A stretch of 64,000 bases of DNA from Eledone cirrhosa (taxonomy: Eukaryota): positions 54,436,001 through 54,500,000 of the forward strand of contig OZ024750.1 of assembly GCA_964016885.1 (NCBI GenBank). Direction: 5' to 3'. The translations under genes and the position numbers were made by a program. Positions 13,346 through 63,441 of this stretch are shown piece by piece. Under the pieces are notes generated by a model. That model did no database searches. It had not been told where the DNA came from and was given only the letters and a program-made list of their open reading frames with translations. The stretch's first letter is position 1, and each line of letters begins with the position of its first letter.

Positions 13346-13404
13346 TTTATTATATATATTTCAAGGGCAACCAAGGCAGTTTTGGTGCGCTTTCATCAGA
13401 TAAA
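13346..13404 (-). ncRNA. Minimal type-I hammerhead ribozyme in a Penelope 3'-end fragment (~13210-13475)
   Basis: Minus: tttat-CTGATGA-aagcgcaccaa..ttggttgccctt-GAAA-tatata-TA-ataaa; flanks homologous to 53533-53800. Confidence 0.8.
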
Positions 13405-13488
13405 GTACAGAATTTGTTTTATAAATGTTGACATACCCGTAGAAAAACAACCTTGACGGTTGAAGGTTCGATGGATATATATGTATAT

Positions 13489-13862
13489 ATGTAAGTATGT
13501 ATGTATACGTACATACATATATGTATACAGACGTACAGTAGCATGTATATATATACATACAGGCACACATATATATATGCACGTATCAGTTTACCGAACA
13601 TTTATTATAATGCTCGGTTTGTTCGTCCCCAAACAAATAAACAGGTGATGTGGTTGCCTAAACACTACGGCGTAATTCAGGCTGTTTGTTTGTTTGCGGG
13701 CGAACAAACCGAGCATTATAATAAATGTTCGGTAAACTGATACATGCATATATATATGTGTGCCTGTATGTATATATGTATGTACGTATACATACATACT
13801 TACATTTAAGTAAGTGCCGTACTGAGAGTGAGAAATGAAATTTCGTTTCATTCTATTCCATT
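13489..13862. mobile_element. Diverged short copy of the 472-bp retrozyme-like family with 5' inversion
   Basis: Arms 13489-~13645 and ~13682-13806 inverted; right side continues 'ttaagtaagtgccgtactgagagtgagaaatgaaatttcg' as at 50189. Confidence 0.8.
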
Positions 13863-13931
13863 TATATATATATGAATATATGAATATATATATATGAATA
13901 TATATATATATATGAATATATATATATATAT

Positions 13932-14228: not shown

Positions 14229-14297
14229 GATATATATATAGATATATATATATATAGATATATATATATATATATAGATATATATATATATGTATGA

Positions 14298-14328
<31 letters not shown>

Positions 14329-14334
14329 AATATA

Positions 14335-14533
14335 TATATGTATACAGACGTACAGCAGTATGTATATATATATACATACATGCATACATATATATATGTA
14401 CGCATGGATTCACCGAACATTTATTATAATGCTCGGTGTGTTTGTAAACAAACATCCCGTATCAAGCCGCAGTGTCCAGCAACCATCGTTGCTCGTTTGT
14501 TCAACACTGACAAAGGAACGCTGGACACTGCGT
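14335..14533 (-). mobile_element. Fragment related to the 472-bp family, truncated inside the ribozyme region
   Basis: Minus 'aacgcagtGTCcagcgttcctttgtcagtgttgaacaaa' parallels 'aactaGTAcatcgttcctgtgtcagtgttgaacaaa' at 50399-50435. Confidence 0.65.
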
Positions 14534-14554
14534 TATATATATATGAATATATAT

Positions 14555-19840: not shown

Positions 19841-19877
19841 AAATATAAGAATCAAAGAACTGCTCAAAACATTATTG

Positions 19878-19924
19878 TGCTTACAGCTGTTTCCTCCAAA
19901 CCGAGGTTTGGATTCTTCGGAGCA
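19878..19924 (-). ncRNA. Minimal hammerhead variant (core CCGAAGA)
   Basis: Reverse complement of 20902-20948. Confidence 0.7.
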
Positions 19925-20901: not shown

Positions 20902-20948
20902 TGCTCCGAAGAATCCAAACCTCGGTTTGGAGGAAACAGCTGTAAGCA
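20902..20948 (+). ncRNA. Minimal hammerhead variant (core CCGAAGA)
   Basis: tgct-CCGAAGA-atccaaac-ctcg-gtttggag-GAAA-c-agct-GTA-agca. Confidence 0.7.
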
Positions 20949-21008
20949 CAATAATGTTTTGAGCAGTTCTTTGATTCTTATATTTCATATAACTGCTCTG
21001 TAAATCAT

Positions 21009-22205: not shown

Positions 22206-23175
22206 ATGTGTTGCGCGTGTGTGTGTCCGTATTTTTATCTTTTTATATGTGTATGTGTATGTTCGTGTAAATGTATGTGTGTGTATGACAGTATAGGTAT
22301 GTGTGTATGTATGTATGTGTAGATATCTCTATGTGCGCGTACATGTATGTATGTGTATGTATATTTGTATGCGTATGTACATTATATTATATGTAATATA
22401 TTTTATTGTTTTTATTTTTTTATTTTTCATAATTTATAGATACATTTATATTAGGCTGTCTGGTCTGACAACCTAACACTGACCCCTCCCCCCCCCCCTC
22501 CCACCTAATTTCTGTATCTTGATCTTGAAATGTGTGTACCAGTGTGTTTATGTGAGTGACTTAATTTCTATTTGCTTATGATTTTATATCCACATATATA
22601 AATGTGAGTGGGGGGTGTGTGTGTGTTTGTGTGTTCGTGGTTATGTGTATATTTATATATATACGCACATGTATGTGTGATTATACTGATATGTGTGAGT
22701 ATGAAAAAAATATATTTATATGCTTGACTACATAAGTATCATTGCGTATATTATCAGCGCATTAAGCTTACAGAGATATTAACCTTGAAATTTTTTATTT
22801 GCATCCATCTTTTTAGTATGCACATACATATTATACACACATTATTGTAAAATGCGTGTAGGGTTTTACATATATATACACACACCAAACTGCTTTTTAA
22901 CCCTTTGTGTTTTCATTGGTCAATTTTGAACTGATATTTTGAATTGTTGTTATTATCAATAAATATACTTCATTATCTCTGAAGACGGCGTATATATGAG
23001 TTAGGTATGTATATTTAATCTTGATAATTTGTATAATTTTGTATAATTTTGTACATAGATCTGTTAAATATGCATACCAATTATAGCACATATATACCCT
23101 AGAAACGATCGTTAAATAGTGAACTTTTTTTGTTTAATATAAGGAATTGTTTGTTCATTATTTATTTAATATTTT
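21209..23175 (+). mobile_element. TG/TA-rich non-coding element ending in a hammerhead (diverged copy of the 41240-43441 family)
   Basis: Shared blocks 'cccacctaatttctgtatcttgatct', 'ttaaccttgaaatttt', 'gaattgttgttattatcaataaatata'. Confidence 0.8.
22969..23123 (+). ncRNA. Type-I hammerhead with ~115-nt stem II
   Basis: ttcattatct-CTGAAGA-cggcgtatatatg...catatataccct.a-GAAA-c-gatc-GTT-aaatagtgaa. Confidence 0.7.
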
Positions 23176-29574
<6,399 letters not shown>

Positions 29575-29799
29575 CAATTAAGTCAAAGATGTACATCCAT
29601 ATATGTATACTGAAATACTAGTATGTATATGAATACACACACGTATACATATGTAGATGTACCAAGTTTTTTTTCACTGATCACTTTACTGTGAGTGGCC
29701 AGCTATTCTGTATGTAAACACACAGACAAACCGGTTTTTAGAGTCATACTGGTTTTTGAGGAAACACCTTTCCTCTATTCTCCAGAAAGCCAGACAAGG

Positions 29800-29844
29800 A
29801 ATATTGAACTAGTTTCGTTGTTGTTACAACTCATCAGCAATATT
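29800..29844 (-). ncRNA. Canonical minimal type-I hammerhead ribozyme
   Basis: Minus: aatattg-CTGATGA-gttgt-aaca-acaac-GAAA-c-ta-GTT-caatatt. Confidence 0.92.
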
Positions 29845-30268
29845 TACCTATCTTCCGGCCTCTCTAGAGAATCGTAAAAGCACATATCGCTATATGCTTT
29901 TTCTATGAAAATTAGTAGTGGGCAGACCAACTTGCATAGAGTGTGAGTAAGTACCGGTTCAACGGAGACGATAAAAACAAATAACGAAACGAAACCAAAT
30001 TTCGCTTCGCTTGCAACTCACCCTTGTATGACTGACGCTCAAACAATTAAGTCAAAGATGTACATCCATATATGTATACTGAAATACTAGTATGTATATG
30101 AATACACACACGTATACATATGTAGATGTACCAAGTTTTTTTTCACTGATCACTTTACTGTGAGTGGCCAGCTATTCTGTATGTAAACACACAGACAAAC
30201 CGGTTTTTAGAGTCATACTGGTTTTTGAGGAAACACCTTTCCTCTATTCTCCAGAAAGCCAGACAAGG

Positions 30269-30313
30269 AATATTGAACTAGTTTCGTTGTTGTTACAACT
30301 CATCAGCAATATT
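30269..30313 (-). ncRNA. Canonical minimal type-I hammerhead ribozyme (second unit)
   Basis: Identical to 29800-29844. Confidence 0.92.
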
Positions 30314-30883
30314 TACCTATCTTCCGGCCTCTCTAGAGAATCGTAAAAGCACATATCGCTATATGCTTTTTCTATGAAAATTAGTAGTGGGCAGACCAAC
30401 TTGCATAGAGTGTGAGTAAGTACCGGTTCAACGGAGACGATAAAAACAATGATGAGTTGTAACAACAACGAAACTAGTTCAATATTCCTTGTCTGGCTTT
30501 CTGGAGAATAGAGGAAAGGTGTTTCCTCAAAAACCAGTATGACTCTAAAAACCGGTTTGTCTGTGTGTTTACATACAGAATAGCTGGCCACTCACAGTAA
30601 AGTGATCAGTGAAAAAAAAACTTGGTACATCTACATATGTATACGTGTGTGTATTCATATACATACTAGTATTTCAGTATACATATATGGATGTACATCT
30701 TTGACTTAATTGTTTGAGCGTCAGTCATACAAGGGTGAGTTGCAAGCGAAGCGAAATTTGGTTTCGTTTCGTTATTTGTTTTTATATATATATGAATATA
30801 TATATATATATATATATATGAATATATATATATGAATATATATATATATATATATATGAATATATATATATATATATATATAT

Positions 30884-33172
30884 ATGAAACAGAGGCCAAC
30901 CTGGAGAAGAAAGATCTGGAAGCTGAAAGTCCCCTCAACCAGTAACAGATTTAAAGATATTTTACTCAACGCCTACGACAGTAAAGAAGAACAGATAGAG
31001 ACATTTAACGTAGAAGAGAACTGGGAGTTCCTAAAAAATAACTTACTAGAGGCGACGGATGAGGTTTGTGGCTGGAGTAAGACCTCAAGCAGGAGGAGAG
31101 TGACTTGGTGGTGGAACAATAAAGTAGATGAAGCAGTCAAGGCCAAGAGACAGGCATGGAAAGAATGGAAGAACGGGGGGAGCAGGGTACATTACATAGA
31201 GACCAAGAGGGAAGCTAGGCGACAAGTATACTTAGCTAGGAGGGAAGCAGAGGATAGAAAATTCAAGCATGTTTTACAACGTGAGGACCAGAAACAGGAG
31301 GTATTCAAGATTGCGAGGCAGTGTGTCAGAGATAGTTGTGATGTCATTGGAGAGAAGTGTATCCGGAATGATAAAGGTGAGCTTGCCCTCACAAGTGCTG
31401 AGAAGAAAGATGCATGGAAGAGTCATTATGATAGATTACTAAATGAGGAGAATGCATGGGAAGAAGAGACCCTACCCCACGTAGACCCTATAGAGGGACC
31501 AGCAGTACAAGTCAGCGGCAGCGTAGTAAGTAAGGCAATCAGAGATATGAAGATAGGGAAGGCAACCGGTCCATCGGGTATAGCTGCCGAGATGCTGAAG
31601 GCATCTGGGTCTGTAGGTCACACTATAACCACACGTATCGTTAACCAGGTAATACTAGAGGGGGCCATACCAAAAGATTGGTGCAGTAGCATCATTGTCA
31701 ACTGCTACAAAGGTAAAGGCGATGCACTAGATAGAGGAAACTATAGAGGTATAAAGTTGATGGACCAGGTCATGAAAGTAACAGAAAGAGTTATAGCACA
31801 GCTGATTAGGGACCGGGTGAATATAGACGAGATGCAATTTGGGTTTGTTCCAGGGAAAGGCACCACTGATGCGCTCTTCCTTGTGAGGCAATTACAGGAA
31901 AAGTACCTAGCTAAAAGTAAGCCACTCTACTTGGCATTTGTCGACCTTGAGAAAGCCTTTGACAGAGTTCCACGTGCAGTAATCTGGTGGGCTCTTAGAA
32001 AACTAGGAGTAGATGAATGGCTTGTGAAAGCGGTACAAGCCATGTATAGGGGAGCAGTCAGCAAAGTTAGGATTGGCAATGAGTATAGCGAGGAATTTAG
32101 CGTACAGGTTGGGGTCCACCAGGGCTCTGTTCTTAGCCCTCTCCTGTTCATCATAGTCCTGCAGGCAATAACGGAGGAGTTTAAGACCGGATGCCCATGG
32201 GAACTCCTGTATGCTGATGACCTCGCACTCATAGCTGAATCTATGGTAGAACTAGAGAATAAATTCCAAACCTGGAAGCAGGGACTAGAGAGAAAGGGCC
32301 TCAAAGTCAACATGACAAAGACTAAGGTCCTTATAAGTAGACGAGAAAACAGAACCCAGATCCCCTCAGGGAAATGGCCTTGCTCAGTATGTAGGAAAGG
32401 TGTAGGTAGGAACTCCATTCTTTGCCCCAAATGCAAACAATGGGTACACAAGAGATGTAGCGGGATCTCAGGAAGCTTAATTAAGAATGTAGGATTCACA
32501 TGCAGCAGCTGTGCTGAAACAGCAAGCAAACAGCCACAGGAAACAAGTACCACCAATCTCTGGGAGGGCCCTGTAGAAACAGTAGACAGCTTCTGCTACC
32601 TAGGTGACCGAATTAGCAACGGAGGTGGGTGCTCAGAAAGTACAATAACTAGGGTAAGAACGGGATGGAAGAAGTTTAGGGAACTACTACCACTGCTAGC
32701 TGCAAAAGGCTTCTCCCTCAGAATGAAAGGCAGACTGTATGATGCGTGTATCCGAACAGCGATGTTGCATGGTAGTGAGACCTGGGCGCTGAAGGTGGAA
32801 GACTTACGTAGATTAGAGAGAAACGAAGCCTGCATGCTCCGATGGATGTGTAACAGTAATATACGTGAACGACAAAGCATAAATGAATTGAGAGAGAGAC
32901 TGAGCATAAGAGGAATCAAATGCTGCGTGCAGGAGAGGCGGTTACGCTGGTATGGACATGTGATGCGTATGAAGGATGACAGCTGCATAAAAAGGTGCAG
33001 AGCACTAGAAGTTGATGGAAACCGCGGAGTGGGGAGACCCAAGATGACTTGGGATGAGGTGATAAAAGCCGACCTTACCCAACTACACCTCTCAAAGTCA
33101 ATGACACACGACCGTGACTTCTGGCGTCACGCAGTAATACAGGGTACCCGACCTCCCATGGGTACATGCTGA
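30884..33172 (+). CDS. RTE-clade LINE ORF, 5'-truncated (reverse transcriptase; APE absent), subfamily A
   Basis: [54 protein letters not shown]; open for 762 aa; the ATG is supplied by the satellite. Confidence 0.95.
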
Positions 33173-36945: not shown

Positions 36946-37012
36946 AAATATAAAATATTAAACAAATAATGAATAAAACAATGAAACAGTTCCTTATATT
37001 AAACAAAAAAAG

Positions 37013-37167
37013 TTCATTATTTAACGATCATTTCTAGGATATATATGTGTTAGAATTGGCATGCATATTCAACAGATCTATGTACAAAATTATACAAAAT
37101 TATACAAACTATCAAGATTAAATATACATACCAAACACACATATACGCCGTCTTCAGAAATAATGAA
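37013..37167 (-). ncRNA. Type-I hammerhead with long stem II (stem III C>T change)
   Basis: Reverse complement of 43225-43379, but reads GAAA-t-gatc-GTT. Confidence 0.7.
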
Positions 37168-37778
37168 ATATATTTATTGATAATAACAACAATTCAAAAT
37201 TTCAGGTCCGTTTGGGAACAAAATTGACCAATGAAAATACAAAAGGTTTTATGCAGTTTGGTGTGTGTATATACATGTAACTACCCCGTACACATATTTA
37301 TACAAAGATGTATGCTCAACATGCATACGCATGCCAAAAAGATGCATGCAAATACAAAATTTCAAGGTTAATGTCTCTGTAAGTTTATAATGCACAGATA
37401 AGATGCGTATAGACACATAAATATGAAATAAGTGTATACACATATTCTCATACTCACACATATCCGTACACTCACACACACGCGCGCGTATATGCATAAA
37501 CATACACATAATTACGAACATACATATACACCCCCACCCCCACACACATATATATATGTGGATATAATATTATCATAAGCACATGGATATTAATTCACTC
37601 ACATAAACACTGCCACACACATTTAGATCAAGATACAGAAATTAGGTGGGAGGGGGGGAGAGGTCAGTATTCAACGGTTTGTGCAGACTGCTTATTTATA
37701 TATGTATCTATAAACTAAGAAATAAAAATTAAAAAGGAAAGAAAAGAAAAAGAAAAAAGAAAAAAGAAATATATCAAG

Positions 37779-37834
<56 letters not shown>

Positions 37835-37916
37835 CACACATCTACACTTAGAACACACATACACACACATATATAAACATATACATATACACACATACAC
37901 ACATATACACACATAC

Positions 37917-37957
<41 letters not shown>

Positions 37958-38472
37958 TACACATATAATCACACATACATATATAGACACACATATATAT
38001 ACACATACACGCACATATACATACACATACATACTTATATACATACAGATATACACATACATACCTATATATACACACAAATACATACAGACATACATAC
38101 ATACATACACACAAATACTTACGCATCCATATATCGGTATATACATACAAACACCACTACACTCTCACACAACTCAGACATACAAAGAAAAAGGTATATA
38201 CCTATACACATATACACATACAAATAGAGATACATATACATATATATATATATATACACATATATATATATATATATACATACACATATACACACATATA
38301 TATACATACACATACATACATGTACACACACATACATATACATACATACACACATACACACATACATATATAGTCATACACACACATACACCTACACGAA
38401 CATACACATACACATATATAAAGATATATATACACACACACACATACACACACACACATATATATAAAATAA

Positions 38473-38511
<39 letters not shown>

Positions 38512-39145
38512 CACATATACATAGACATATATGTACATACATACACATACATACATACATATACACACATATATATATATATATATACACACATAGACAC
38601 ATACATACATACACACACAACATACATACACACACATATATACTCATACATAGACATAGATATATATTCATACATACATACGCACTTACATATACTCATA
38701 TATACAAATACATACGCATCCATATATGCGTATATACATACAAACACCACTACACTCTCACACAACTCAGACATACAAAGAAAAAGGTATATACATATAC
38801 ATATATACACACATTAATAGAGATACATATACACATATATATATATATATACACATACATTTATATATATACACCCACACACACATACAACCATAAACAC
38901 ACATACAAACACACACATACACACATATATACATACATATATATACACACACACAAAAAACACACATACACATATATATTTTTACACATATATATACATA
39001 TATATACATATACACACCCTCACATATACACACATACACATAAGTTATATTATAATAATAAATAATATATATATATATATATATATACACATACGAATAT
39101 AGACATATATACACACATAGATATACATATATATATATATATATA

Positions 39146-40629
39146 CAGGGGATGCTTTGGAGAGGAGCAATTATAGGGGTATAAAACTGATAGATCAGGT
39201 TATGAAAGTGGCAGAAAGGATTCTAGCACAACTAATTAGAGAAAGGGTCAAACTAGATGAGATGCAGTTTGGTTTTGTGCCTGGGAAGAGTACAACAGAT
39301 GCCCTCTTCTTGGTGAGACAAATGCAAGAGAGGTTCTTAGAGAAGAATAAGCCACTATACTTAGCCTTTGTTGACCTAGAGAAGGCCTTTGATAGGGTAC
39401 CCCGATCTGTCATCTGGTGGTCCCTAAGGAAGCTGGGTGTTGAGGAATGGCTTGTAAGGACAGTGCAAACTTTGTACAGAGGTACTCTCAGTAAAGTCAG
39501 GGTAGGAATGGAGTTTAGTGAGGAATTCCAGATACAAGTAGGAGTACATCAGGGTTCGGTCCTCAGCCCGCTCTTGTTCATTATAGTCCTCCAAGCCATA
39601 ACAGAGGAGTTTAAGACTGGCTGTCCATGGGAACTTCTCTATGCTGACGATCTGGCTCTTATGGCAGAATCAGTAGAGGAGCTAGAGAATAAATTCCGGC
39701 TATGGAAACAGCAGTTGGAAGCAAGAGGACTGAGAGTAAATCTAGCTAAGACAAAAGTGTTGATGAGTAGAAAAGAGGACAAAACCCTGATTCCGTCAGG
39801 GAAATGGCCATGTTCGATATGCAGAAAAGGAACTGGCATAAATTCTATAAAATGCACACAATGTAGGTCCTGGGTACACAAGAGATGTAGCGGGATAGCA
39901 GGCAAACTAACAGGTAGGGAGAAATATGTATGCAGTAGATGTACAGGGAAATTAGACAGTAGAAGTCGCACTGATAGACACATTTTTCAAATGCGAGAGG
40001 GCGCTATAGAAGTGGTGGATAGCTTCCGGTACCTAGGAGATCAGATTAGCATGGGAGGAGGGTGTTCCGAGGCCATAGTATCTAGAATAAGGACGGGTTG
40101 GAAGAAGTTTAGGGAGCTGCTTCCTCTGTTGACGAAGAAGGGTTTCTCCCTGCGTACGAAAGGCCGGTTGTATGATGCCTGTGTGAGGAGCGCGATGCTG
40201 CATGGTAGTGAGACATGGGCAGCTACCGCAGAAGATATGCGACGGCTGGAGAGAAATGAGGCAAGCATGCTCCGTTGGATGTGCAGTGTAAATGTGCGTG
40301 AACGACCCAGCATAAATGTGTTGAGAGAGAAACTGTGTCTGAGAGGGATAGAATGTAGTGTACGGGAGAGGAGACTGAGGTGGTATGGACATGTGATGCG
40401 CATGGAGGATGACCGATGGGTGAAGAAGTGCCAGGAAATGCCAGTTGAAGGAAGACGTGGTAGAGGTAGACCACGAAAAACATGGGCGGAGGTGGTGAGA
40501 ACAGACCTGAGATCATTGAAGCTCACGGTGGAGATGACGAGGGACCGTGACGAGTGGAGAGATGCTGTGCTGAATAAGACCCGTCCCACCCTTGCAAGCA
40601 GGGAAAAGCGGACGTAAAATGATGATGAT
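39146..40629 (+). mobile_element. RTE LINE subfamily C, 5'-truncated, open RT ORF (to 40617), essentially no 3' UTR
   Basis: NYRGIKL...LLYADD...RGRGRPRKTW; stop followed immediately by aatgatgatgat. Confidence 0.95.
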
Positions 40630-41863
40630 ACACACACACACACACACACTCACATATATATGTGCGCACACGTACATATATACACATACACACATATACA
40701 CATAAACATATACATGTGCATACATGTACATACACACATATACCCACATAGATACGAAGATAGACATATATATAGAGAGACATACATATATATACACATA
40801 TATATATACACATACATACACACATATATATATATATATATACACACACACATACACGCCCACACACATATACACATATACACATATATATATATATACA
40901 TATACACATATATATACACATGCATACATACACATATATATATATATACACACATATATATACACACAATCTTACATTCTTATTTGCATGCGCATATATG
41001 TATTTTTATATTCAGATATAAAAACCCAAACATATATACACCTACCTACATATATATTCATACATACACGCTTACAAACACAGATGATAATAGTATGGGG
41101 GAAAGGGGGGGGGGGGGGGTTGGAGAAGGGGATTATAGTAAATATATGTTTCAAGAAACATAGAATATTATCTGTATCTGGATCCCAATATATGTTTTTA
41201 CATAGTTTCAGTGTTAGGAAATACAAGAAATAAGGCATATATATATATATGTATATCTATGTGTGTATATATGTCTATATTCGTATGTGTATATATATAT
41301 ATATATATATATTATTTATTATTATAATATAACTTATGTGTATGTGTGTATATGTGAGGGTGTGTATATGTATATATATGTATATATATGTGTAAAAATA
41401 TATATGTGTGTGTTTTTTGTGTGTGTGTGTATATATGTATGTATATATGTGTGTATGTGTGTGTTTGTATGTGTGTTTATGGTTGTATGTGTGTGTGGGT
41501 GTATATATATGAATGTATGTGTATATATATATATATATGTGTATATGTATCTCTATTAATGTGTGTATATATGTATATGTATATACCTTTTTCTTTGTAT
41601 GTCTGAGTTGTGTGAGAGTGTAGTGGTGTTTGTATGTATATACGCATATATGGATGCGTATGTATTTGTATATATGAGTATATGTAAGTGCGTATGTATG
41701 TATGAATATATATCTATGTCTATGTATGAGTATATATGTGTGTGTATGTATGTTGTGTGTGTATGTATGTATGTGTCTATGTGTGTATATATATATATAT
41801 ATATATGTGTGTATATGTATGTATGTATGTGTATGTATGTACATATATGTCTATGTATATGTG

Positions 41864-41902
<39 letters not shown>

Positions 41903-42413
41903 TTATTTTATATATATGTGTGTGTGTGTATGTGTGTGTGTGTATATATATCTTTATATATGTGTATGTGTATGTTCGTGTAGGTGTATGTGTGTGTATG
42001 ACTATATATGTATGTGTGTATGTGTGTATGTATGTATATGTATGTGTGTGTACATGTATGTATGTGTATGTATATATATGTGTGTATATGTGTATGTATA
42101 TATATATATATATATGTGTATATATATATATATATGTATATGTATCTCTATTTGTATGTGTATATGTGTATAGGTATATACCTTTTTCTTTGTAGGTCTG
42201 AGTTGTGTGAGAGTAGTGGTGTTTGTATGTATATACCGATATATGGATGCGTAAGTATTTGTGTGTATGTATGTATGTATGTCTGTATGTATTTGTGTGT
42301 ATATAGGTATGTATGTGTATATCTGTATGTATATAAGTATGTATGTGTATGTATATGTGCGTGTATGTGTATATATATGTGTGTCTATATATGTATGTGT
42401 GATTATATGTGTA

Positions 42414-42446
<33 letters not shown>

Positions 42447-42534
42447 TTATATGTATGTGTGTATATGTGTGTATGTGTGTATATGTATATGTTTATATAT
42501 GTGTGTGTATGTGTGTTCTAAGTGTAGATGTGTG

Positions 42535-42608
<74 letters not shown>

Positions 42609-43224
42609 CTTGATATATTTCTTTTTTCTTTTTTCTTTTTCTTTTCTTTCCTTTTTAATTTTTATTTTTTATTTCTTAGTTTATAGATACATATATAAAT
42701 AAGCAGTCTGCCCAAACCGTTGAATACTGACCTCTCCCCCCCTCCCACCTAATTTCTGTATCTTGATCTAAATGTGTGTGGCAGTGTTTATGTGAGTGAA
42801 TTAATATCCATGTGCTTATGATAATATTATATCCACATATATATGTGTGTGGGTGTGTGTGTGTATATGTATGTTCGTAATTATGTGTATGTTTATGCAT
42901 ATACGCGCGCGTGTGTGTGAGTGTACGGATATGTGTGAGTATGAGAATATGTGTATACACTTATTTCATATTTATGTGTCTATACGCATCTTATCTGTGC
43001 ATTATAAACTTACAGAGACATTAACCTTGAAATTTTGTATTTGCATGCATCTTTTTGGCATGCGTATGCATGTTGAGCATACATCTTTGTATAAATATGT
43101 GTACGGGGTAGTTACATGTATATACACACACCAAACTGCATAAAACCTTTTGTATTTTCATTGGTCAATTTTGTTCCCAAACGGACCTGAAATTTTGAAT
43201 TGTTGTTATTATCAATAAATATAT

Positions 43225-43379
43225 TTCATTATTTCTGAAGACGGCGTATATGTGTGTTTGGTATGTATATTTAATCTTGATAGTTTGTATAATTTTGTAT
43301 AATTTTGTACATAGATCTGTTGAATATGCATGCCAATTCTAACACATATATATCCTAGAAACGATCGTTAAATAATGAA
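43225..43379 (+). ncRNA. Type-I hammerhead with 10-bp stem I and ~116-nt stem II
   Basis: ttcattattt-CTGAAGA-cggcgtatatgtgtg...acacatatatatccta-GAAA-c-gatc-GTT-aaataatgaa. Confidence 0.8.
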
Positions 43380-43575
43380 CTTTTTTTGTTTAATATAAGG
43401 AACTGTTTCATTGTTTTATTCATTATTTGTTTAATATTTTATCTTGACTCTGTATACCGTTTATCTTTCACCGAAAGTGATTTTTCATTACATCTCTTCT
43501 TTCCATGATATCCGGAATACATTGAGTTCTTCATACGGATTGGACACTACCGTAAACTCTTGGTAGATTTATCTA

Positions 43576-45207
<1,632 letters not shown>

Positions 45208-46164
45208 ACTAGACATGAAAAATGCGCAAGCTCAAAAGTGCCACAGAATGTTATAATAAACCTTCAAAAGTGTGGGACTAGAGTTGTTGCTAAAAAATAT
45301 TGTAATCATTATATATCGTACATTCTGTGGCATCCTTTATAAAAATAGCTGAAACCAACGAAGCCTTTATTTTTACGCTATTTCACTTAGTTAATTCTTA
45401 GAGTGTAACATATAAAAATATGATTTACAACTATAAAATAAATTAATTAATATAATAACAGAGCTGCGGAGCTGAAATTTAGGAAATAATGGAGTATCGG
45501 ATCCTGAGTTGGAGCCAGTCAATTTTTGGCCGACTCCGCAGCCCTGTATAATACATTTCATATTAAAGTTATTAATAAACCTATTTTACACTTCATGCAA
45601 ATTACCACGAGATATTGATATTAGATATAAGATACAGCGCAATATCTACAGCTGTAAAAGTACGAAAGCGAAGTAATAATAAGTGGCTTAAGGTAATTCC
45701 AATATGAAAGTTTGTAGTGATAAAAATTTGATAATGCAATACGATTGTTAATATTATAGTTCTATGAAAATGTAACAATAGATAACTAAATTATTTTACT
45801 ATTAGTATATTTAAGAAATTATCATTATAGATTTGATCGTTCATATAAGCATCATATTAAGTTTCAACACAATTATTTTGTTACTATGAGTATATGATAA
45901 TAATATTACGTAATTATTTATAGCTGTTATTACATTAAACATAGATGTATTTATTTTTATATGTTACACTCTAAGAATTAACTAAGTGAAATAGCGTAAA
46001 AATAAAGGCTTCGTTGGTTTAAGCTATTTTTATAAAGGATGCCACAGAATGTACGATATATAATGATTACAATATTTTTTAGCAACAACTCTAGTCCCAC
46101 ACTTTTGAAGGTTTATTATAACATTCTGTGGCACTTTTGAGCTTGCGCATTTTTCATGTCTAGT
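45208..46164. mobile_element. Element with 213-bp near-perfect inverted arms (MITE/fold-back)
   Basis: 45208-45420 vs 45952-46164, one mismatch seen; each arm has an internal tgccacagaatgt/acattctgtggca IR. Confidence 0.8.
45459..45546. mobile_element. Tiny hAT-type MITE
   Basis: cagagctgcggag / ctccgcagccctg TIRs; 8-bp near-TSD tataataa/tataatac. Confidence 0.7.
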
Positions 46165-48873: not shown

Positions 48874-49790
<917 letters not shown>

Positions 49791-50368
49791 TAAGTATGCA
49801 TGTATACGTACATACATATATGTATACAGACGTACAGTAGCATGCACATATATATATATATATATACATATATACATACATATGCATACAGGTACACATA
49901 CATATATGCACGTATCAGTTTAGCGGCGCTTATTATAACGTCGCTTTGTTCGTTTGTAAACAAACTGAACAGCCTGAATTTATGCCATACGGTGTTAAGG
50001 CAACCACGTCACCTTTTTGTTTACAAACGAACAAAGCGACGTTATAATAAGCGCCGCTAAACTGATACGTGCATATATGTATGTGTACCTGTATGCATAT
50101 GTATGTATATATGTATATATATATATATATGTGCATGCTACTGTACGTCTGTATACATATGTATGTACGTATACATGCATACTTACATTTAAGTAAGTGC
50201 CATACTAAGAGTGAGAAATGAAATTTCGTTTTCATTTTGTTTCAATTTATCGTTTTCGGTATGCCTGACCGATTTAACTCACTCAATATGCAAATTAGGC
50301 TGCTCAGCCGTTAATTTTCATAAGGAAAGTATATACTTTCGAACGTTCAACTATCTGGCAGATGGGTA

Positions 50369-50413
50369 AACGGTGCTGATGATAGCTAACAAGCTTGAAA
50401 CTAGTACATCGTT
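50369..50413 (+). ncRNA. Minimal type-I hammerhead ribozyme
   Basis: aacggtg-CTGATGA-tagc-taacaa-gctt-GAAA-c-ta-GTA-catcgtt. Confidence 0.88.
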
Positions 50414-50840
50414 CCTGTGTCAGTGTTGAACAAAAAGGTGACGTGGTTGCCTTAACACCGTATGGCATAAATTCAGGCTGTTCAGTTTGTTTACAAACGA
50501 ACAAAGCGACGTTATAATAAGCGCCGCTAAACTGATACGTGCATATATGTATGTGTACCTGTATGCATATGTATATATATATGTATATGTATATATATAT
50601 GTGCATGCTACTGTACGTCTGTATACATATATGTATGTACGTATACATGCATACTTACATTTAAGTAAGTGCCATACTAAGAGTGAGAAATGAAATTTCG
50701 TTTTCATTTTGTTTCAATTTATCGTTTTCGGTATGCCTGACCGATTTAACTCACTCAATATGCAAGTTAGGCTGCTCAGCCGTTAATTTTCATAAGGAAA
50801 GTATATACTTTCGAACGTTCAACTATCTGGCAGATGGGTA

Positions 50841-50885
50841 AACGGTGCTGATGATAGCTAACAAGCTTGAAACTAGTACATCGTT
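50841..50885 (+). ncRNA. Minimal type-I hammerhead ribozyme (second unit)
   Basis: Identical to 50369-50413. Confidence 0.88.
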
Positions 50886-51191
50886 CCTGTGTCAGTGTTG
50901 AACAAAAAGGTGACGTGGTTGCCTTAACACCGTATGGCATAAATTCAGGCTGTTCAGTTTGTTTACAAACGAACAAAGCGACGTTATAATAAGCGCCGCT
51001 AAACTGATACGTGCATATATGTATGTGTACCTGTATGCATATGTATGTATATATGTATATATATATATATATATGTGCATGCTACTGTACGTCTGTATAC
51101 ATATATGTATGTACGTATACATGCATACTTACATTTAAGTAAGTGCCATACTAAGAGTGAGAAATGAAATTTCGTTTTCATTTTGTTTCAA

Positions 51192-53534
<2,343 letters not shown>

Positions 53535-53661
53535 AAAGTTATATTTAAATTGTTGGGTTACAACTAGTAAATATTTATAACTGATATAAAAGCACTCGAC
53601 AAATATTTGGAGTATATTTACAATATTAAATAAATGGAAACTATATTTATAAAACCATATT

Positions 53662-53727
53662 TATTTCATTATATATATTTCAGGGATATCATATTAACAA
53701 TATGCTATGCCTTCCTCAGACAAAATA
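53662..53727 (-). ncRNA. Minimal type-I hammerhead ribozyme
   Basis: Minus: tattttgt-CTGAGGA-aggcatagcatatt-gtt-aatatgatatccct-GAAA-tatata-TA-atgaaata. Confidence 0.82.
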
Positions 53728-55095
53728 CAATATAAACAGTTTTATAGATAAATAGATTCGACATACCGTAACAACATCGACTTGTATTTGAAAAGGTTGA
53801 TTTGGCAGTGAAAAAATTGTACACAGAGAGAAAGAAAGAGAGAAAAAAGGAAAGAAAGACAGAAAACGAAGAAAAAGAAGAAAAAGAAGAAATGCATGGA
53901 ACAAAATAGAGAGATGGAAAGATAGATAAAGAGAAGAACTTCATGTAAAGAAACAGAAAGAGATATATATATATAGAGAGAGAGGAAATAGAGATAGATA
54001 CATATATATAGAAAACTAGGTAGTGGGACGTCTGTTGAGTAAACGTATCAATGATACATTTATTTATTTGTTTATTTATTTAGCTCTAGTATTAATGTAA
54101 GGGAGATATATGGAGAGAAACCAGCTGTTATATATAGAGAGAAAAAAAATATAGAGAGAGAAAAAATTTAAAAATAGCCAGACATATGCGAGGCGTAAAA
54201 AACCCTATGTTTTAATGTAGAGGTATTAGTATTAATAAAAATCAGCCACTATATTGTAAATATCAGTATTCCTGAATGAGACATGTATCCATAATGTGTG
54301 AAAATTAATGATCTTATGTTTAGTTTTTAAAAAAAATTCATATGTTTATGTGATAACTACAAACATCTATGTGAATCTACATGATCAACTCTGCAAACCC
54401 TAAGTTCACGGAAAACATTCCCAATGTGGTATAAAAATTTAAGTATACATATATGTGTATATATATACACACAAATATATATAGAGTCAATATTACTATT
54501 CCTGTCTTTACTCTACAAGATTATCTATCAAGCAGAAATAGAGAGCAGATTTCAATATACTAATAAAAATATATATCAGAAACAAAACTAAAAAATAACA
54601 ATAATAATAATAAGTAATAATAAAATAGAAAACTAAAAAATATTACGAAAGAATATTACATATTAAAAATATTACATATTAAAAAATTTACATATTAAAA
54701 ATATTAAAAATAAAAAATATTAGAAAATACTACAATAATAAAAATAAAAATAAACCACAAAGATCAACCCTTCAAAATTAATTGACAATATATTGCCAAG
54801 TTCATTATAAGCATCAGAGTCGAAAAACAGATAAAGCCAAAAATTATCTATCAAATCGCATCTAGCAAAGATCATTTCAAAAAGTTTAGGATGCCCAATT
54901 TGGTCTACATGTGTTCTTATATTTAATATAGAAGTTTATCTAGTGTAACGTTTATTCGAAATATTTGGAGCATCAACTTTTAGGGTAGCTTAATTTTTCA
55001 TGAAGAATGTTTAAATAAAAATAAAAAGAATAAAAAGAAGGAATCAAAGATTTATCGGCTAGTTTCCCATATAATTATAAATCAACCTAAATATA

Positions 55096-57100
55096 CTACA
55101 TTTTAAATTTAAATTTATATTTAAACGTTGAGTTTAATCTATGTTTGCAACAACTGAATAAATTTGTCCGTAGATTAAGGGAATTTTTAGATTTTAGTAT
55201 AAAGAATATCTCCTCTGCGCAGAGGTCACATGTCTCAGAGGATGAATTAAAAGGAATCCCTCTTGAGACTATATTCCAAGCCGTCGAATATCTAACGTTA
55301 TCTAGCTTAAGTTGCCAGAGTACGCCTGATAGTGCCGTTGAAGATTTTTTGCTTGGATCTGTGAAAGAATTCTTGTGGTTATTATAGCGAAGTTTAAATT
55401 CCGTCGATGTGGAACCGACGTAGTTAAAAGAATTAGAGTCAGTATTAACATTACAATTGTATACTATATTTTTAACTAAGCAGTTGTTATTTAACGGACA
55501 TTTAGATCTATCTCTACAGTTACATTTGTTAACTTGTATATTATTTATGCTATTATCACTAGGTTTTAAGTTCCTATTATTTATTCTATTAATATTTTGT
55601 GCTAAATTTTTGGTGGATGAGTAGGTTAATTTAATTGTATGTCTATTGAAAATTGAGTGATACCTATGTGTTCTAGGGAAGCGATTATCAAGAGCTTTAA
55701 AAAATAGTTTAGCGATGTGGGTTTTAATGTTTAGTGAGAAGGGGGGGGGGGGGGGCAAACCAAATTATGTTCCTAGTTCTATTTCTTTTTTGGCCTTTGG
55801 AATTATTGTAATGCTTTCTATTATAGTTGTTAAGGTTGTTGCCGTAATTAAAAAAGTTGTTACTTTGTTTAGTTTGTCTATCATTATCTATGTACACAAT
55901 CTTATCAGCATATCCTGCTCTAGCTAATGCTTCATTGTAGTATTGGGCTTTTTCGTCGAAAATCTTTCTATTCGACGAGATTCTAGAGATACGTTTTTGA
56001 ACAGAGTTTACTATAGTGTTTTTGACAGATCTGGGGTGGTTAGAGTTAAAGTTGACATAGTTTAAGTTTTCATTCAACTTGTGAAAAGGATAGTGAAGAC
56101 ATGTGTTGACATTTAATGTTATATCTAGGAAATTGACTATTCTATGGTTGTTCTCAATTTCTATTTTAAGATTAAAGTAATTAAAAAATTGTGTAATTTG
56201 TTTACATTTTCTATTTAGTTCAGAGTTATTATTATCAATAAGTAAAAGCATGTCATCTCTATATAAACCTCCGGTAGTACCAGGTATTTTCCTATGTAGC
56301 GAATTGATTAAAAATGAGCCCACAAGGTCAGTTACCTGAGCTGAGTCGGATGATCCCATAGTAATGTCAAAATTGCTATCTCTATCTGCTCTGGTCCATA
56401 GTTGGTCATTAAATTCTATCAAAGTTTTCCTAGCCGATAATATAATATGCATTTCATTGCTAGTTAGGTCAGTATGTTTGAATGCGTAATTTAGTGCCTT
56501 ATTTAGTAGATTAGGGGTAATAGAAGAATAATAGTTAGCTATATCAAGTTGAATAAACTTATTATTATTGTTATATTTAATTTGCTTAAACCACTCAACA
56601 ACCTCTCCAGTTCCCTTCCACAAGCTCAGGTTAGATAAACAATCCAAGTTCTTAATTTGCTGTATCACCCTGTCAAGAATGTTTTTGCTTAATTTGCCCA
56701 GGTCCGATTTTGATGGTGCGATCAATCTAACTGGCAGGTCATTTTCAAAATTCCTCCTGTGATCTTTCATATTGATCTTCGGTTTCCTGGGCACGAAAGG
56801 TTGTGTTCTGTTCTCAATTTCCAACTCGTGTATTATACAAGATGCTTCGACATTCATTTTCTCAAGCTCGGCCTTATCTGCTACCTTGTACTTTTTCCTC
56901 AGCTCTTTCAGTATGAGGCCATTATACATGTCTTTCTGCACTCCATAGAGGTTGTTGGTCTTGTCAGATTTCACCAAGATCTCAGTTTTCTCTAAGCTCT
57001 CAATGTTATCCTTAATGCCTTTCAGATATTCCTGGCCTTTGAAGTTTCTCTTGAATTTGACCCCTTGTATGATAGAAATTATATCGTTTTCAAAGGCCAG
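55096..57100 (-). CDS. Penelope-like RT + GIY-YIG endonuclease, one frameshift in a G/C homopolymer (~55741-55755)
   Basis: KSDKT, K.H, RLI, DIANYYSSI, MGSSDS, LYRDD, FLDIT, SNHP; then IFNRHT.K..YS, CNCR.....CPL...C, IVY..YVG...FKLRYNNH, CDLC.EE, LN.R. Confidence 0.93.
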
Positions 57101-57191
57101 GAATATCTGAAAGGCATTAAGGATAACATTGAGAGCTTAGAGAAAACTGAGAAGATCTTGGTGAAATCTGACAAGACCAACAACCTCTATG

Positions 57192-59202
57192 GAGAGGGGG
57201 GGGGGGTAGGAACTGAGGGTCGCATGGTAAATAACTGAGAGAGATAGAATAGGATTAGAATACCGCATGGTAAATATCCAAGTTAATAAGTTAATACTAC
57301 ATCAGTAAAATTAACAATAATAACGTCATGAAAAAACTACTAAGAGAAACCCTCGAAAATTTATCGCTAATACAGCAGGGAAAATTTAACGCTAATACAG
57401 CAGGGAACATCATAATATTAACGACAATATGTAGGCTAAAATACCTTCGTAGATTAGATGGATGGCTGGAAAAATTGGAATCAGCTCTAGTGATACATTT
57501 TAGCAGAGAAGAATGGGAAAGTGTCTTATCTCTTCAATATTTTCAGATTGAATGAATTAGGTTAAAGACAGGGTAGTAAGCCTTAAAGAAGTGCATAGAG
57601 AGGGGGGGGGTAGGAACTGAGGGTCGCATGGTAAATAACTGAGAGAGATACAATAGGATTAGAATACCGCATGGTAAATATCCAAGTTAATAAGTTAATA
57701 CTACATCAGTAAAATTAACAATAATAACGTCATGAAAAAACTACTAAGAGAAACCCTCGAAAATTTATCGCTAATACAGCAGGGAAAATTTAACGCTAAT
57801 ACAGCAGGGAACATCATAATATTAACGACAATATGTAGGCTAAAATACCTTCGTAGATTAGATGGATGGCTGGAAAAATTGGAATCAGCTCTAGTGATAC
57901 ATTTTAGCAGAGAAGAATGGGAAAGTGTCTTATCTCTTCAATATTTTCAGATTGAATGAATTAGGTTAAAGACAGGGTAGTAAGCCTTAAAGAAGTGCAT
58001 AGAGAGGGGGGGGTAGGAACTGAGGGTCGCATGGTAAATAACTGAGAGAGATAGAATAGGATTAGAATACCGCATGGTAAATATCCAAGTTAATAAGTTA
58101 ATACTACATCAGTAAAATTAACAATAATAACGTCATGAAAAAACTACTAAGAGAAACCCTCGAAAATTTATCGCTAATACAGCAGGGAAAATTTAACGCT
58201 AATACAGCAGGGAACATCATAATATTAACGACAATATGTAGGCTAAAATACCTTCGTAGATTAGATGGCTGGAAAAATTGGAATCAGCTCTAGTGATACA
58301 TTTTAGCAGAGAAGAATGGGAAAGTGTCTTATCTCTTCAATATTTTCAGATTGAATGAATTAGGTTAAAGACAGGGTAGTAAGCCTTAAAGAAGTGCATA
58401 GAGAGGGGGGGGGGTAGGAACTGAGGGTCGCATGGTAAATAACTGAGAGAGATACAATAGGATTAGAATACCGCATGGTAAATATCCAAGTTAATACTAC
58501 ATCAGTAAAATTAACAATAATAACGTCATGAAAAAACTACTAAGAGAAACCCTCGAAAATTTATCGCTAATACAGCAGGGAAAATTTAACGCTAATACAG
58601 CAGGGAACATCATAATATTAACGACAATATGTAGGCTAAAATACCTTCGTAGATTAGATGGATGGCTGGAAAAATTGGAATCAGCTCTAGTGATACATTT
58701 TAGCAGAGAAGAATGGGAAAGTGTCTTATCTCTTCAATATTTTCAGATTGAATGAATTAGGTTAAAGACAGGGTAGTAAGCCTTAAAGAAGTGCATAGAG
58801 AGGGGGGGGGGGTAGGAACTGAGGGTCGCATGGTAAATAACTGAGAGAGATACAATAGGATTAGAATACCGCATGGTAAATATCCAAGTTAATAAGTTAA
58901 TACTACATCAGTAAAATTAACAATAATAACGTCATGAAAAAACTACTAAGAGAAACCCTTGAAAATTTATCGCTAATACAGCAGGGAAAATTTAACGCTA
59001 ATACAGCAGGGAACATCATAATATTAACGACAATATGTAGGCTAAAATACCTTCGTAGATTAGATGGATGGCTGGAAAAATTGGAATCAGCTCTAGTGAT
59101 ACATTTTAGCAGAGAAGAATGGGAAAGTGTCTTATCTCTTCAATATTTTCAGATTGAATGAATTAGGTTAAAGACAGGGTAGTAAGCCTTAAAGAAGTGC
59201 AT
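57192..59202. repeat. Five head-to-tail ~400-bp tandem units
   Basis: 'gtcatgaaaaaactac' ATGs at 57328, 57732, ~58135, 58528 and 58934; nearly identical units. Confidence 0.97.
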
Positions 59203-59203
59203 A

Positions 59204-59675: not shown

Positions 59676-59741
59676 TATATATATATATATATTAGAGAAT
59701 AAATATATATATATATATTAGAGAATATATATATATATATA

Positions 59742-60962
59742 TTAGAGAATAAATTCCAAACCTGGAAGCAGGGACTAGAGAGAAAGGGCCTCAAAGTCAA
59801 CATGACAAAGACTAAGGTCCTTATAAGTAGACGAGAAAACAGAACCCAGATCCCCTCAGGGAAATGGCCTTGCTCAGTATGTAGGAAAGGTGTAGGTAGG
59901 AACTCCATTCTTTGCCCCAAATGCAAACAATGGGTACACAAGAGATGTAGCGGGATCTCAGGAAGCTTAATTAAGAATGTAGGATTCACATGCAGCAGCT
60001 GTGCTGAAACAGCAAGCAAACAGCCACAGGAAACAAGTACCACCAATCTCTGGGAGGGCCCTGTAGAAACAGTAGACAGCTTCTGCTACCTAGGTGACCG
60101 AATTAGCAACGGAGGTGGGTGCTCAGAAAGTACAATAACTAGGGTAAGAACGGGATGGAAGAAGTTTAGGGAACTACTACCACTGCTAGCTGCAAAAGGC
60201 TTCTCCCTCAGAATGAAAGGCAGACTGTATGATGCGTGTATCCGAACAGCGATGTTGCATGGTAGTGAGACCTGGGCGCTGAAGGTGGAAGACTTACGTA
60301 GATTAGAGAGAAACGAAGCCTGCATGCTCCGATGGATGTGTAACAGTAATATACGTGAACGACAAAGCATAAATGAATTGAGAGAGAGACTGAGCATAAG
60401 AGGAATCAAATGCTGCGTGCAGGAGAGGCGGTTACGCTGGTATGGACATGTGATGCGTATGAAGGATGACAGCTGCATAAAAAGGTGCAGAGCACTAGAA
60501 GTTGATGGAAACCGCGGAGTGGGGAGACCCAAGGACTTGGGATGAGGTGATAAAAGCCGACCTTACCCAACTACACCTCTCAAAGTCAATGACACACGAC
60601 CGTGACTTCTGGCGTCACGCAGTAATACAGGGTACCCGACCTCCCATGGGTACATGCTGAAGCATATAAACAATATCCCCCCCCCCCCCCCACCGCAAGG
60701 TGGTCGTGGAGGTGCCACGGCAAAAAAGCACCCAGCCCACACTGTAAAGTGGACGTGTAGGCGCCACGAAAAAGCACCCAGCACTCACTGTAAATGAGGT
60801 TGGTGTTAGGAAGGGCATCCAGCTGTAGAAATCAAGCCAGATCAGTTCCTGTATGAGCAAGGCATGGTCAGCCGACCAGACACTGCCCACAACAGGACAA
60901 CCCGTCTAACCCATGCTAGCGTGGAAGAACGGACGTAAAACGGTGATGATGATGATGATGAT
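59742..60962 (+). mobile_element. RTE LINE subfamily A, 5'-truncated
   Basis: Near-identical to 32253-33473; 2-bp deletion near 60533; (GAT)n tail. Confidence 0.95.
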
Positions 60963-60981
60963 ATATATATATATATATATA

Positions 60982-61017
<36 letters not shown>

Positions 61018-61142
61018 TATATATATATATATATATATATGAATATATATATATATATATATATATGAATATATATATATATATATATATATGAATATAT
61101 ATATATATATATATATATGAATATATATATATATATATATAT

Positions 61143-63441
61143 AAGCATGTTCTACAACGCGATGACCAAAAACGTGAGGTGTTCAGGATTGCTAGGCAAT
61201 GCGTCAAGGAAAACCGTGATATTGTCGGGGAGAAGTGTGTACTAAACGACGATGGCACACTTGCCATCACCGACGCTGATAAGAAGGTAGCTTGGAAGTG
61301 TCACTATGAAAGGCTACTAAATGAGGAGAATAATTGGAGAAAGGCAGTCTCCCCCATATCGACCCAATAGAGGGACCAGCAGTGTTAGTCGAGGGGAGTA
61401 TAATAAGTAAGGCAATCAAGGATATGAAGACTGGTAAGGCGGCTGGGCTTCGGAAATAGTTGCTGAGATGCTGAAGGCATCTGGCACGGTGGGACACACC
61501 ATGGTCACCCGCATAGTTAACCAAGTCGTACAGAATGGGGTTGTTCCGAAGGACTGGCATAGCAGCATCATCGTTAACTGTTATAAGGGTAAAGGAGACG
61601 CCCTAGATAGGAGTAACTATAGAGGCATTAAATTAATCGACCAGGTCATGAAGGTCACGGAAAAAGTAATAGCGCAACTAATCAGAGAGAGAATTGACCT
61701 AGATGAAATGCAGTTCGGGTTTTGTGTCAGGCAAAAGTACCACAGACGCTCTTTTCATAGTACGACAACTACAGGAGAAGTACCTAGCTAAAGGTAAACC
61801 CCTCTACTTAGCTTTTGTCGACTTGGAGAAAGCCTTCGACAGAGTCCCCCGCTCCATTATCTGGTGGGCTCTTAGAAAACTAGGCGTTGACGAATGGCTT
61901 GTGAGGGCTATACAAGCATGTATAAAGAAACAGTCAGCAAGGTTAGAATTAACAACGAATATAGTGAAGAGTTTAGCGTAAAAGTTGGCGTCCATCAGGG
62001 CTCTGTTCTCAGTCCACTACTATTTATTATTGCCCTTCAGGCTATAACAGAGGAGTTCAAGACAGGCTGCCCATGGGAACTCCTATACGCAGACGACCTG
62101 ACACTCATAGCGGAATCAATGGCCGAGCTAGAGAAGAAATTCCAAACATGGAAGCACGGCCTAGAGTCAAAAGGACTTAAAATTAACCTGGCTAAGACCA
62201 AAGTACTAGTTTGTAGGAAAGAAAACAAGGCGGCGGTCCCTTCTGGGAAATGGTCGTGCTCGGTGTGTAGGAAAGGCGTAGGTAGAAACTCCATTTTATG
62301 TCCTAAATGCAAAGTATGGGTGCATAAAAGATGTAGTGGGATCACAGGTAAGCTAACTAAGAACATAGATTTTACATGTGGCCGGTGCTCTGGTGCAATA
62401 AGTAACAGCAAGTGCCCACAAACTACTAGCTCTTTCAATTGCGCAGAGGGTTCTATAGAAATAGTGGACAGCTTCCGTTACCTGGGCGATAAAATCAGCA
62501 GTGGGGGAGGGTGCTCTGAAAGTACTGTAGCTAGAGTCAGAACTGGTTGGAAAAAGTTCAGAGAGCTTATACCACTATTAGCTGCTAAAGGGTTCTCACT
62601 AAAAATGAAAGGCAGGTTGTACGATGCCTGCATACGAACAGCAATGCTGCATGGCAGTGAGACCTGGGCATTGTGTGCAGAGGATATACGCAGACTAGAG
62701 AGGAACGAAGCTTGCATGCTCCGCTGGATGTGTAATAGTAATATACGTGAACGGCAAAGCATAAACGAACTAAGGAAAAAATTAGAGATAAGAGGGATCA
62801 GATGTTGTTTACTCGAGAGAAGGCTACGTTGGTATGGACACGTGATGCGCATGAAAGTCGATAGCTGTATAACAAAGTGCAGGGCAATAAAGATAGACGG
62901 TAGTCACGGAATAGGCAGACCTAGAAAAACCTGGGACGAGCTGATAAACTCCGACATCACACACTTACACCTCTCCAAGACAATGTCACTGGACCGAGAC
63001 CTTTGGCGGTACTCAGTAACAGAGAAGACCCGCCTTACCTAAATATATAGTAAAACCTACTCCAGCCAGTAGGCATCTCTAACAAAATACACCCCGTCCC
63101 ACCACCACCACCCCCACCCGATCCACACCACCCCGTTCTATGTAAAGTTATGTTGGTGCCGCGCCATCGAGGCCGAAACAAATGAGATCGTGTAGGTGTC
63201 ACGACAAAAAAACACACAGTCCACGCTGTAATGTGGCCGTGTAGGCAACACGGTAAAAACCTCCCAGACCCACACTGTAAATGTGGTTGGTGTTAGGAAG
63301 GGCATCCAACTGTAGAAAACCTGCCAGACAGTCCTATGCGAGCAAGACAATCACTCTTGCCTCAAGTGGGACTACCCCCGTCCAAACCCATGCAAGCGTG
63401 GAACACGGACGTTAAACGTTGATGATGATGATGATGATGAT
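61143..63441 (+). mobile_element. RTE LINE subfamily B, 5'-truncated, several frameshifts in RT ORF (ends 63042)
   Basis: ORF pieces 61179-61370, 61468-61791, 61703-61981 and 61894-63042 assemble into the RTE RT with LLYADD; (GAT)n tail. Confidence 0.95.

Follow-up and report, generated by a model that had tools for sequence, protein, structure and literature searches.

A 472-bp tandem hammerhead repeat family in Eledone cirrhosa: a probable non-LTR retrozyme with Penelope-like insertion marks

The locus lies in a 64-kb stretch of Eledone cirrhosa DNA (the window, to which all positions refer) and consists of a single insertion between two (TA)n microsatellite flanks. The left flank (48876..49787) represents the insertion target and the right flank extends over 51193..53532. 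The insertion comprises an inverted 5'-truncated arm on the minus strand (49788..50021) and a forward partial tandem of 2.5 x 472 bp on the plus strand (50016..51192). Six nucleotides of microhomology, TTTGTT (50016..50021), belong both to the arm and to the forward unit that comes first. At 50016-51196, Tandem Repeats Finder detects the 472-bp period in 2.5 copies with 98% matches. The reverse complement of 50901-51137 equals 49785-50021 over 237 nt (100%), the first three bases being common to the flank. Counted from the predicted hammerhead cut site, the arm covers unit positions +23 to +254 and stops at a 'no-tail' end, and the tandem starts at +82 and finishes at +312, the 'tail' end. The 58-bp 'tail' (51135..51192, plus strand), for which hairpins are predicted, is located at the right end of the insertion only; internal copies of its sequence are found at 50189-50246 and 50661-50718. 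A preliminary description of this DNA had assigned all of 49788..51191 to tandem 472-bp units. The 2.5 units are recovered at 50016-51192, but 49788-50021 is an inverted copy. The description mentions neither this arm nor the (TA)n target nor the fixed 'tail' with its two ends.

The 472-bp element is non-coding. An ORF check found no reverse transcriptase (RT) plus GIY-YIG ORF in it, and all 10 ATG ORFs of at least 60 aa that overlap it run through low-complexity TA/TG tracts. No tRNA gene was found in the 64-kb window. A target-site duplication longer than 4 bp is unreadable at the insertion because both flanks are (TA)n.

Two identical type I hammerhead motifs are encoded on the plus strand of the tandem. 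Hammerhead 1 (50369..50413) has its core CUGAUGA at 50376 and its GUA cleavage triplet at 50404-50406, with the cut predicted between 50406 and 50407; hammerhead 2 (50841..50885) has its core at 50848 and a predicted cut after 50878. The cores are 472 bp apart in consecutive units, and the predicted cut-to-cut monomer (50407..50878, plus strand, 472 nt) has a GC content of 36% and is strongly self-paired. Each motif is composed of a stem I of 7 bp, a stem II formed by U-U and 4 bp under the loop AACA, the GAAA segment, stem III ACUAGU and GUA. The stem I of hammerhead 1 is predicted to extend to about 50345-50430; for both this family and a second, 469-bp family in the window, predictions show such a longer stem I interrupted by an internal loop. 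The hammerhead scan agrees with the preliminary description in the type I plus-strand motif, the GUA site, the ACTAGT stem III and the predicted cut position. The expectation of one hammerhead in each of about 2.5 units is reduced to two in total, at 50376 and 50848.

The core agrees with the consensus given in PMC3088659 at C3 U4 G5 A6 N7 G8 A9, at G12 A13 A14 A15.1, at U16.1 and at H17. At the base of stem II, the usual but not obligatory G10.1-C11.1 is absent and U-U is found; U10.1-U11.1 is described as a natural hammerhead variant that still cuts (PMC3088659). A motif with seven stem I pairs and four stem II pairs occurred in none of 20,000 dinucleotide shuffles of the unit. An Rfam search returned nothing at the gathering level; Hammerhead_HH9 falls far short of its cut-off of 52 bits, scoring 18.5 (E 0.2). 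The microRNA models heading the E-value list match the TA tract and were dismissed as an effect of composition. Scanning of both strands identified six type I hammerheads in the window. The 472- and 469-bp families account for two each, and the remaining pair, at 53719 and 13399, is built differently. This pair has a long stem II, unlike the 472-family hammerhead, which shows the canonical retrozyme build of a long stem I and a short stem II.

Half of the 14 core-anchored stem pairs differ between the hammerheads of the 472- and 469-bp families. Six of these seven differences are double changes that keep the pairing, and the seventh is the U-U of the 472 family versus a G-C in the 469 family. 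In a covariation count of 13 pairs, which rests on two distinct sequences only, 96% of cells pair with six double changes; slid structures reach 27-54% pairing and at most one double change, and 14 of 500 shuffles do as well. As double changes preserve pairing and the core varies little among the contigs of the public run X1 (see below), the 472-family hammerhead is, on this comparative evidence, under structural constraint. Judged in the same way, it joins two weakening features, the weak stem III and the U-U, yet stays conserved.

Folding of 86 nt around the motif gives -24.9 kcal/mol for the free fold versus -17.3 kcal/mol when constrained to the hammerhead, which lies 7.6 kcal/mol above the minimum. 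Cofolding of two isolated copies showed no stem III dimer pairing. The weak stem III, together with the U-U that opens stem II, suggests by analogy with other hammerheads that cleavage takes place in dimers; a palindromic short stem III is described as a dimer signal in PMC4209133. Folding of the monomer, proposed earlier as a check, gave a minimum free energy of -158.7 kcal/mol (z -8.7, 0/100 shuffles), part of which is due to the TA/TG tract. Folded as a circle, the monomer is likewise stable (-155.1 kcal/mol).

The 469-bp family is located at 29572..30785 on the minus strand and consists of a 336-bp inverted arm and about 1.9 tandem units with two hammerheads and a 70-bp tail. Its two hammerhead cores (30306 and 29837) are associated with a GUU site and a stem II that opens with G-C, and its tandem units are 100% identical over 409 bp. 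It had been regarded as unrelated to the 472-bp family. This view does not hold: the alignment of the 472- and 469-nt cut-to-cut monomers extends from one end to the other, with 309 of 508 columns identical (61%; 71% of ungapped positions). The global alignment score of 329 compares with 145 +/- 13 for shuffled sequences, and none of 500 shuffles was as good. When the hammerhead core is removed, the upstream 269 nt are still significant both locally and globally (0/1000 each); the downstream part is significant globally (0/1000) but not locally (45/1000). By alignment, the two are sister families. They are colinear and share the end positions, stem III and loop II, the ends of the 469-family insertion aligning to +256 and +316 of the 472 unit. 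They differ in that the 469-bp family has G-C at the base of stem II, a GUU site, a 70-bp tail and this tail on the inverted arm. The two families may cut as mixed dimers, since both keep the ACUAGU stem III despite a divergence of about 30-40%. The inverted arm of the 469 insertion crosses the cut site and halts inside the hammerhead core. Since it crosses the cut site, a cleaved linear monomer is not expected to have been its template.

Two further relatives are found about 35 kb from the 472-bp locus. The alignment scores of the regions 13486-13865 and 14289-14540 were reached by none of 200 shuffles on the matching strand. The first relative (13489..13865, plus strand) is diverged but of the same design, with an inverted arm ending at +254, a forward arm from +23 to +316 and (TA)-rich flanks; it starts 23 nt past the cut-site position. 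The second (14335..14533, minus strand) is more diverged. It opens some 10 nt ahead of the cut site (triplet GTC) and runs into (TA)n; an inverted arm is missing and both ends are truncated. A complete hammerhead is absent from both according to the type I hammerhead scan. At the start of the second relative, 14524-14533 (minus strand) looks like a different stem III with a GUC site, which suggests a third subfamily with its own hammerhead variant. Among 13 window regions compared with the unit on both strands, three are significant (13486, 14300 and the 469 family) and nine are at shuffle level; the region 45209-46163 is borderline (4 and 5 of 200 shuffles) and was left out of the count.

In the public run X1, 5,312 contigs align on 50190-50545, with a summed depth of about 0.4-2 million over most of this interval, a figure that does not equal copy number. 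The alignment comprises contigs at least 80% alike, and differences near contig ends are not listed. Over these 356 nt, 22 sites vary at 3% or more. Within 50376-50413 the only such sites are core position N7 (36%) and loop II (48%), and the U-U at the base of stem II is therefore fixed among the aligned X1 contigs. In stem I, positions 50369 (35%) and 50373 (7%) vary, with no partner change listed. In runs X5 and X6 the unit is present at a depth of 5-60 only; four short pieces from run X3, less than 90% alike, were dropped as uninformative. No RNA run is among the six runs listed for the unit, which carries no information on expression. Pattern scans gave 0 matches in metagenome contigs and 0 in viral contigs. 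Judging by the X1 contigs and the window copies, the 472-bp family is very abundant, variable and dispersed.

Several expectations of the preliminary description can be compared with these data. Copies are not restricted to the locus, as seen from the two in-window relatives and the 5,312 X1 contigs. The relatives near 13489 and 14335 are real (0/200 shuffles) and the family is dispersed, although neither carries a full hammerhead. Core conservation among copies holds in X1, where N7 is the only core position varying at 3% or more, but does not extend to these two relatives. The term 'retrozyme-like' is appropriate for a family with tandem units, type I hammerheads and variant contigs in X1.

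A 5'-truncated Penelope-like element (53533-57194, minus strand) is situated 2.3 kb from the 472-bp insertion. It displays Hydra-clade motifs, a hammerhead core at 53719 and a short inverted 5' arm reaching to 57194. Its RT frame (55727-57136) contains DKT and its endonuclease frame (55099-55764) contains CxCx5C, CxxC and CxH, the two frames being split at a G run near 55740. This endonuclease signature is that of the Hydra clade, which targets (TA)n (PMC8557442), and the presence of a Hydra-like element indicates that such enzymes exist in this genome. The best named homologues, three of the top nine of 298 matches, come from Argonauta hians, which makes an octopod the likely host. Pfam and PDB searches did not recognise the neighbouring RT, and in its homologues RVT_1 gave a weak match in one of five checked. 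Compared with the 472 unit, the 3' region of the element is at shuffle level (159 and 62 of 200), which gives no support for this element as the partner.

Further features of the window were recorded. The segment 13205-13470 (minus strand), which adjoins the relative at 13489 and contains the long-stem-II hammerhead core at 13399, resembles by eye the 3' end of the Penelope-like element. Abutting this element, five tandem 404-bp units (97%) at 57192-59203 end in (TA)n; they contain no hammerhead according to the scan and no tRNA, and are unrelated to the 472 unit. Fold-back elements with inverted arms of 485 bp (100%) and 212 bp (99.5%) are located beside (TA)n at 19848-20978 and 45209-46163, respectively. 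No hammerhead was found in either, and both are possibly other Penelope-type insertions. A large inverted repeat between (TA)n tracts occupies 37012-43380 with an RT-bearing insertion in its centre, and a related piece is found at 22430-23124. LINE-like copies encoding an RT followed by a PHD finger (Pfam) are located at 30860-33172, 39121-40617 and 59703-63042, with a likeness of about 70-75% between subfamilies and 99% within.

The arrangement of the insertions is informative about their mobilisation. In each of the three inverted-arm insertions, which lie in TA-rich flanks, a fixed offset of 58-70 bp separates the two ends, the tail measuring 58 bp at the 472 locus, about 60 bp at 13.8 kb and 70 bp in the 469 family. 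The relative at 13489-13865 has the same end points as the 472 locus, with the arms swapped in orientation. The described marks of Penelope-like elements are insertion into (TA)n, tandems that are partial, an inverted copy with 5' truncation and a tail of 30-40 bp confined to one end (PMC8557442). Purified Poseidon enzyme cuts and extends both target strands, and it initiates reverse transcription internally, at the two boundaries of the tail (PMC11167929). The combination of inverted arm, fixed two-end tail and (TA)n target therefore argues for Penelope-like mobilisation of the 472-bp family.

The most probable interpretation, with a probability of roughly 0.78, is that the 472-bp family is a non-LTR retrozyme, a non-autonomous, non-coding passenger of Penelope-like elements. 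In this scheme, the array would be transcribed on the plus strand, and two hammerheads would pair via the ACUAGU palindrome and cut slowly at GUA to release a 472-nt monomer. By analogy with the coral, mussel and axolotl retrozymes (PMC7229834), a host RNA ligase may close the monomer into a circle. A Penelope-like RT/endonuclease acting in trans would nick both strands of a (TA)n tract, and cDNA would be primed at two fixed internal sites, +254 and +312/+316, that bound the tail. If one cDNA remained short and the other ran through 2.5 units, their head-to-head joining at the 6-nt microhomology would yield the inverted arm and the tandem. The template would have to cross the cut site and could be either an uncut multimeric transcript or a circle. 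Several observations weigh against this interpretation. The hammerhead fold is predicted to lie above the ground state and the motif combines two weakening features; eight of nine predicted Xenopus retrozyme dimers failed to cut when tested (10.64898/2026.07.22.740005), and two stem I positions vary in X1 with no partner change listed. The 3' region of the neighbouring Penelope-like element is at shuffle level against the unit, and the tail of 58-70 bp in the 472 and 469 families exceeds the 30-40 bp described for Penelope-like elements.

The nature of the template separates the passenger interpretation from its strongest competitor. As the tandem spans the cut site, a linear monomer left by cleavage was presumably not the template, unless template switching by the RT took place. 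The model put forward in PMC7229834 makes the circular monomer indispensable as template: the RT would complete some 2.5 rounds of the 472-nt circle, and the cDNA, folding back at the microhomology, would produce the inverted arm. This possibility is compatible with a tandem that passes the cut site two times and has both its start and its end within a unit, with the stable circular fold of the monomer (-155.1 kcal/mol) and with the 409 bp of complete identity between the 469-family units. The three passes over +82 to +254, however, are not identical. Over 177 columns, the inverted arm matches the far 3' unit with 0 differences; it departs from the adjacent unit by two 2-bp gaps, and from the middle unit by two substitutions and one gap. 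Identity of the arm with the far unit is predicted by double priming on one uncut multimer and not by fold-back from a circle. This argument is a weak one, as the differences are few and all lie within the slippage-prone TA tract, where slippage or assembly error is also a possible cause. In addition, hammerhead mutants still insert in vitro, cleavage not being needed (PMC11167929). Overall, the obligate circle is considered doubtful, and the sequence leans slightly towards an uncut multimer as the template of the 472 copy.

A wider proposal may be tentatively attached to the passenger interpretation, although it is more doubtful than the latter. The insertions could be a record of the second half of Penelope transposition, namely dual-strand priming at two fixed sites of an uncut multimer followed by a microhomology join of the cDNAs, with the hammerhead and the circle as a side branch selected for another role. 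Such a role would be, for example, to limit the template length or to make a stable circle. If true, a Penelope enzyme acting in trans would have a minimal substrate in the 472-nt non-coding RNA with its start sites mapped. As copies are very numerous and the young ones nearly identical, the family is well suited to a test of circle versus uncut transcript as template. The kind of element is unchanged by the insertion record.

A less probable explanation denies the family its independence: some autonomous Penelope-like element, with its ORF at another genomic location, would have left the units as 5'-truncated copies of its 3' end (pseudo-LTR arrays). All Penelope end marks are present, and Penelope insertions are mostly 5'-truncated (10.64898/2026.07.22.740005). 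In both families, however, the tail is followed directly by the next unit and not by ORF-bearing DNA, and all 10 listed overlapping ATG ORFs are low-complexity products of the TA tract. The hammerhead is, moreover, of the canonical retrozyme build, unlike the long-stem-II motifs at 53719 and 13399; this explanation is therefore regarded as unlikely. A local satellite that expanded through slippage or unequal crossing-over, its hammerhead being dead or fortuitous, would suit the microsatellite-rich surroundings, the Rfam score far under the cut-off and the in-window relatives without a full hammerhead, but is highly improbable in view of independent insertions that share fixed ends, thousands of variant contigs in one run, compensatory changes and a chance motif frequency of 0/20,000. 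The plant-type LTR retrozyme was also considered and rejected, as that kind is defined by a type III hammerhead and LTRs.

On the preferred interpretation, the 472-bp family is a new retrozyme family of an already known kind of element. Like the animal non-LTR retrozymes described in PMC7229834 and 10.64898/2026.07.22.740005, it has head-to-tail non-coding units with a type I hammerhead in consecutive units, a GC content below 50%, a self-paired monomer, dispersed high-copy occurrence and co-occurring Penelope-like elements. The 472-bp unit is just above the 150-450 bp given in PMC7229834 and inside the 51-972 bp given in 10.64898/2026.07.22.740005. Among the retrozyme features described in the available text of these two sources, neither the inverted arm nor the fixed tail nor the (TA)n target appears. 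Searches of a mainly non-subscription literature listed no paper on a cephalopod retrozyme, and the main text of an Octopus vulgaris repeat annotation (PMC13282606) mentions Penelope families and not ribozymes in the part available. The preprint 10.64898/2026.07.22.740005 calls a non-LTR retrozyme 'active' when at least two consecutive tandem units each contain a complete type I hammerhead, and by its two predicted hammerheads the 472-bp element falls within this working definition. The same source reports that eight of nine predicted Xenopus retrozyme dimers tested did not cut.

With regard to the ribozyme, the closest counterparts are the axolotl motifs HHR_Amex1, with a 1-bp stem III under a palindromic tetraloop, and HHR_Amex2, with U-U at the base of stem II, both of which cut better as dimers (PMC7229834). 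The 472 motif has both features at once, a likeness by description and not by sequence. With regard to insertion, the family resembles Penelope-like elements (Hydra, Naiad, Neptune, Poseidon) and the non-autonomous Chlamys/MRC1 in its partial tandem, inverted 5'-truncated copy, one-end tail, (TA)n target and hammerhead in the repeat (PMC8557442, PMC11167929). It differs from Penelope-like elements in lacking an RT or GIY-YIG ORF and in its tail of 58-70 bp versus 30-40 bp. Published Octopus Naiad 3' ends, as far as available, showed no clear likeness to the unit by eye or by four short motifs. The preprint, with a focus on vertebrates, argues that the non-LTR retrozymes represent non-autonomous Penelope derivatives; the proposal that animal retrozymes are moved by Penelope rests on co-occurrence and, in Xenopus, on sequence kinship, for which the preprint states that invertebrates had not been examined (10.64898/2026.07.22.740005). 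Here, an invertebrate family itself bears the Penelope marks of tail, inverted arm and (TA)n target, in three insertions from two sister families.
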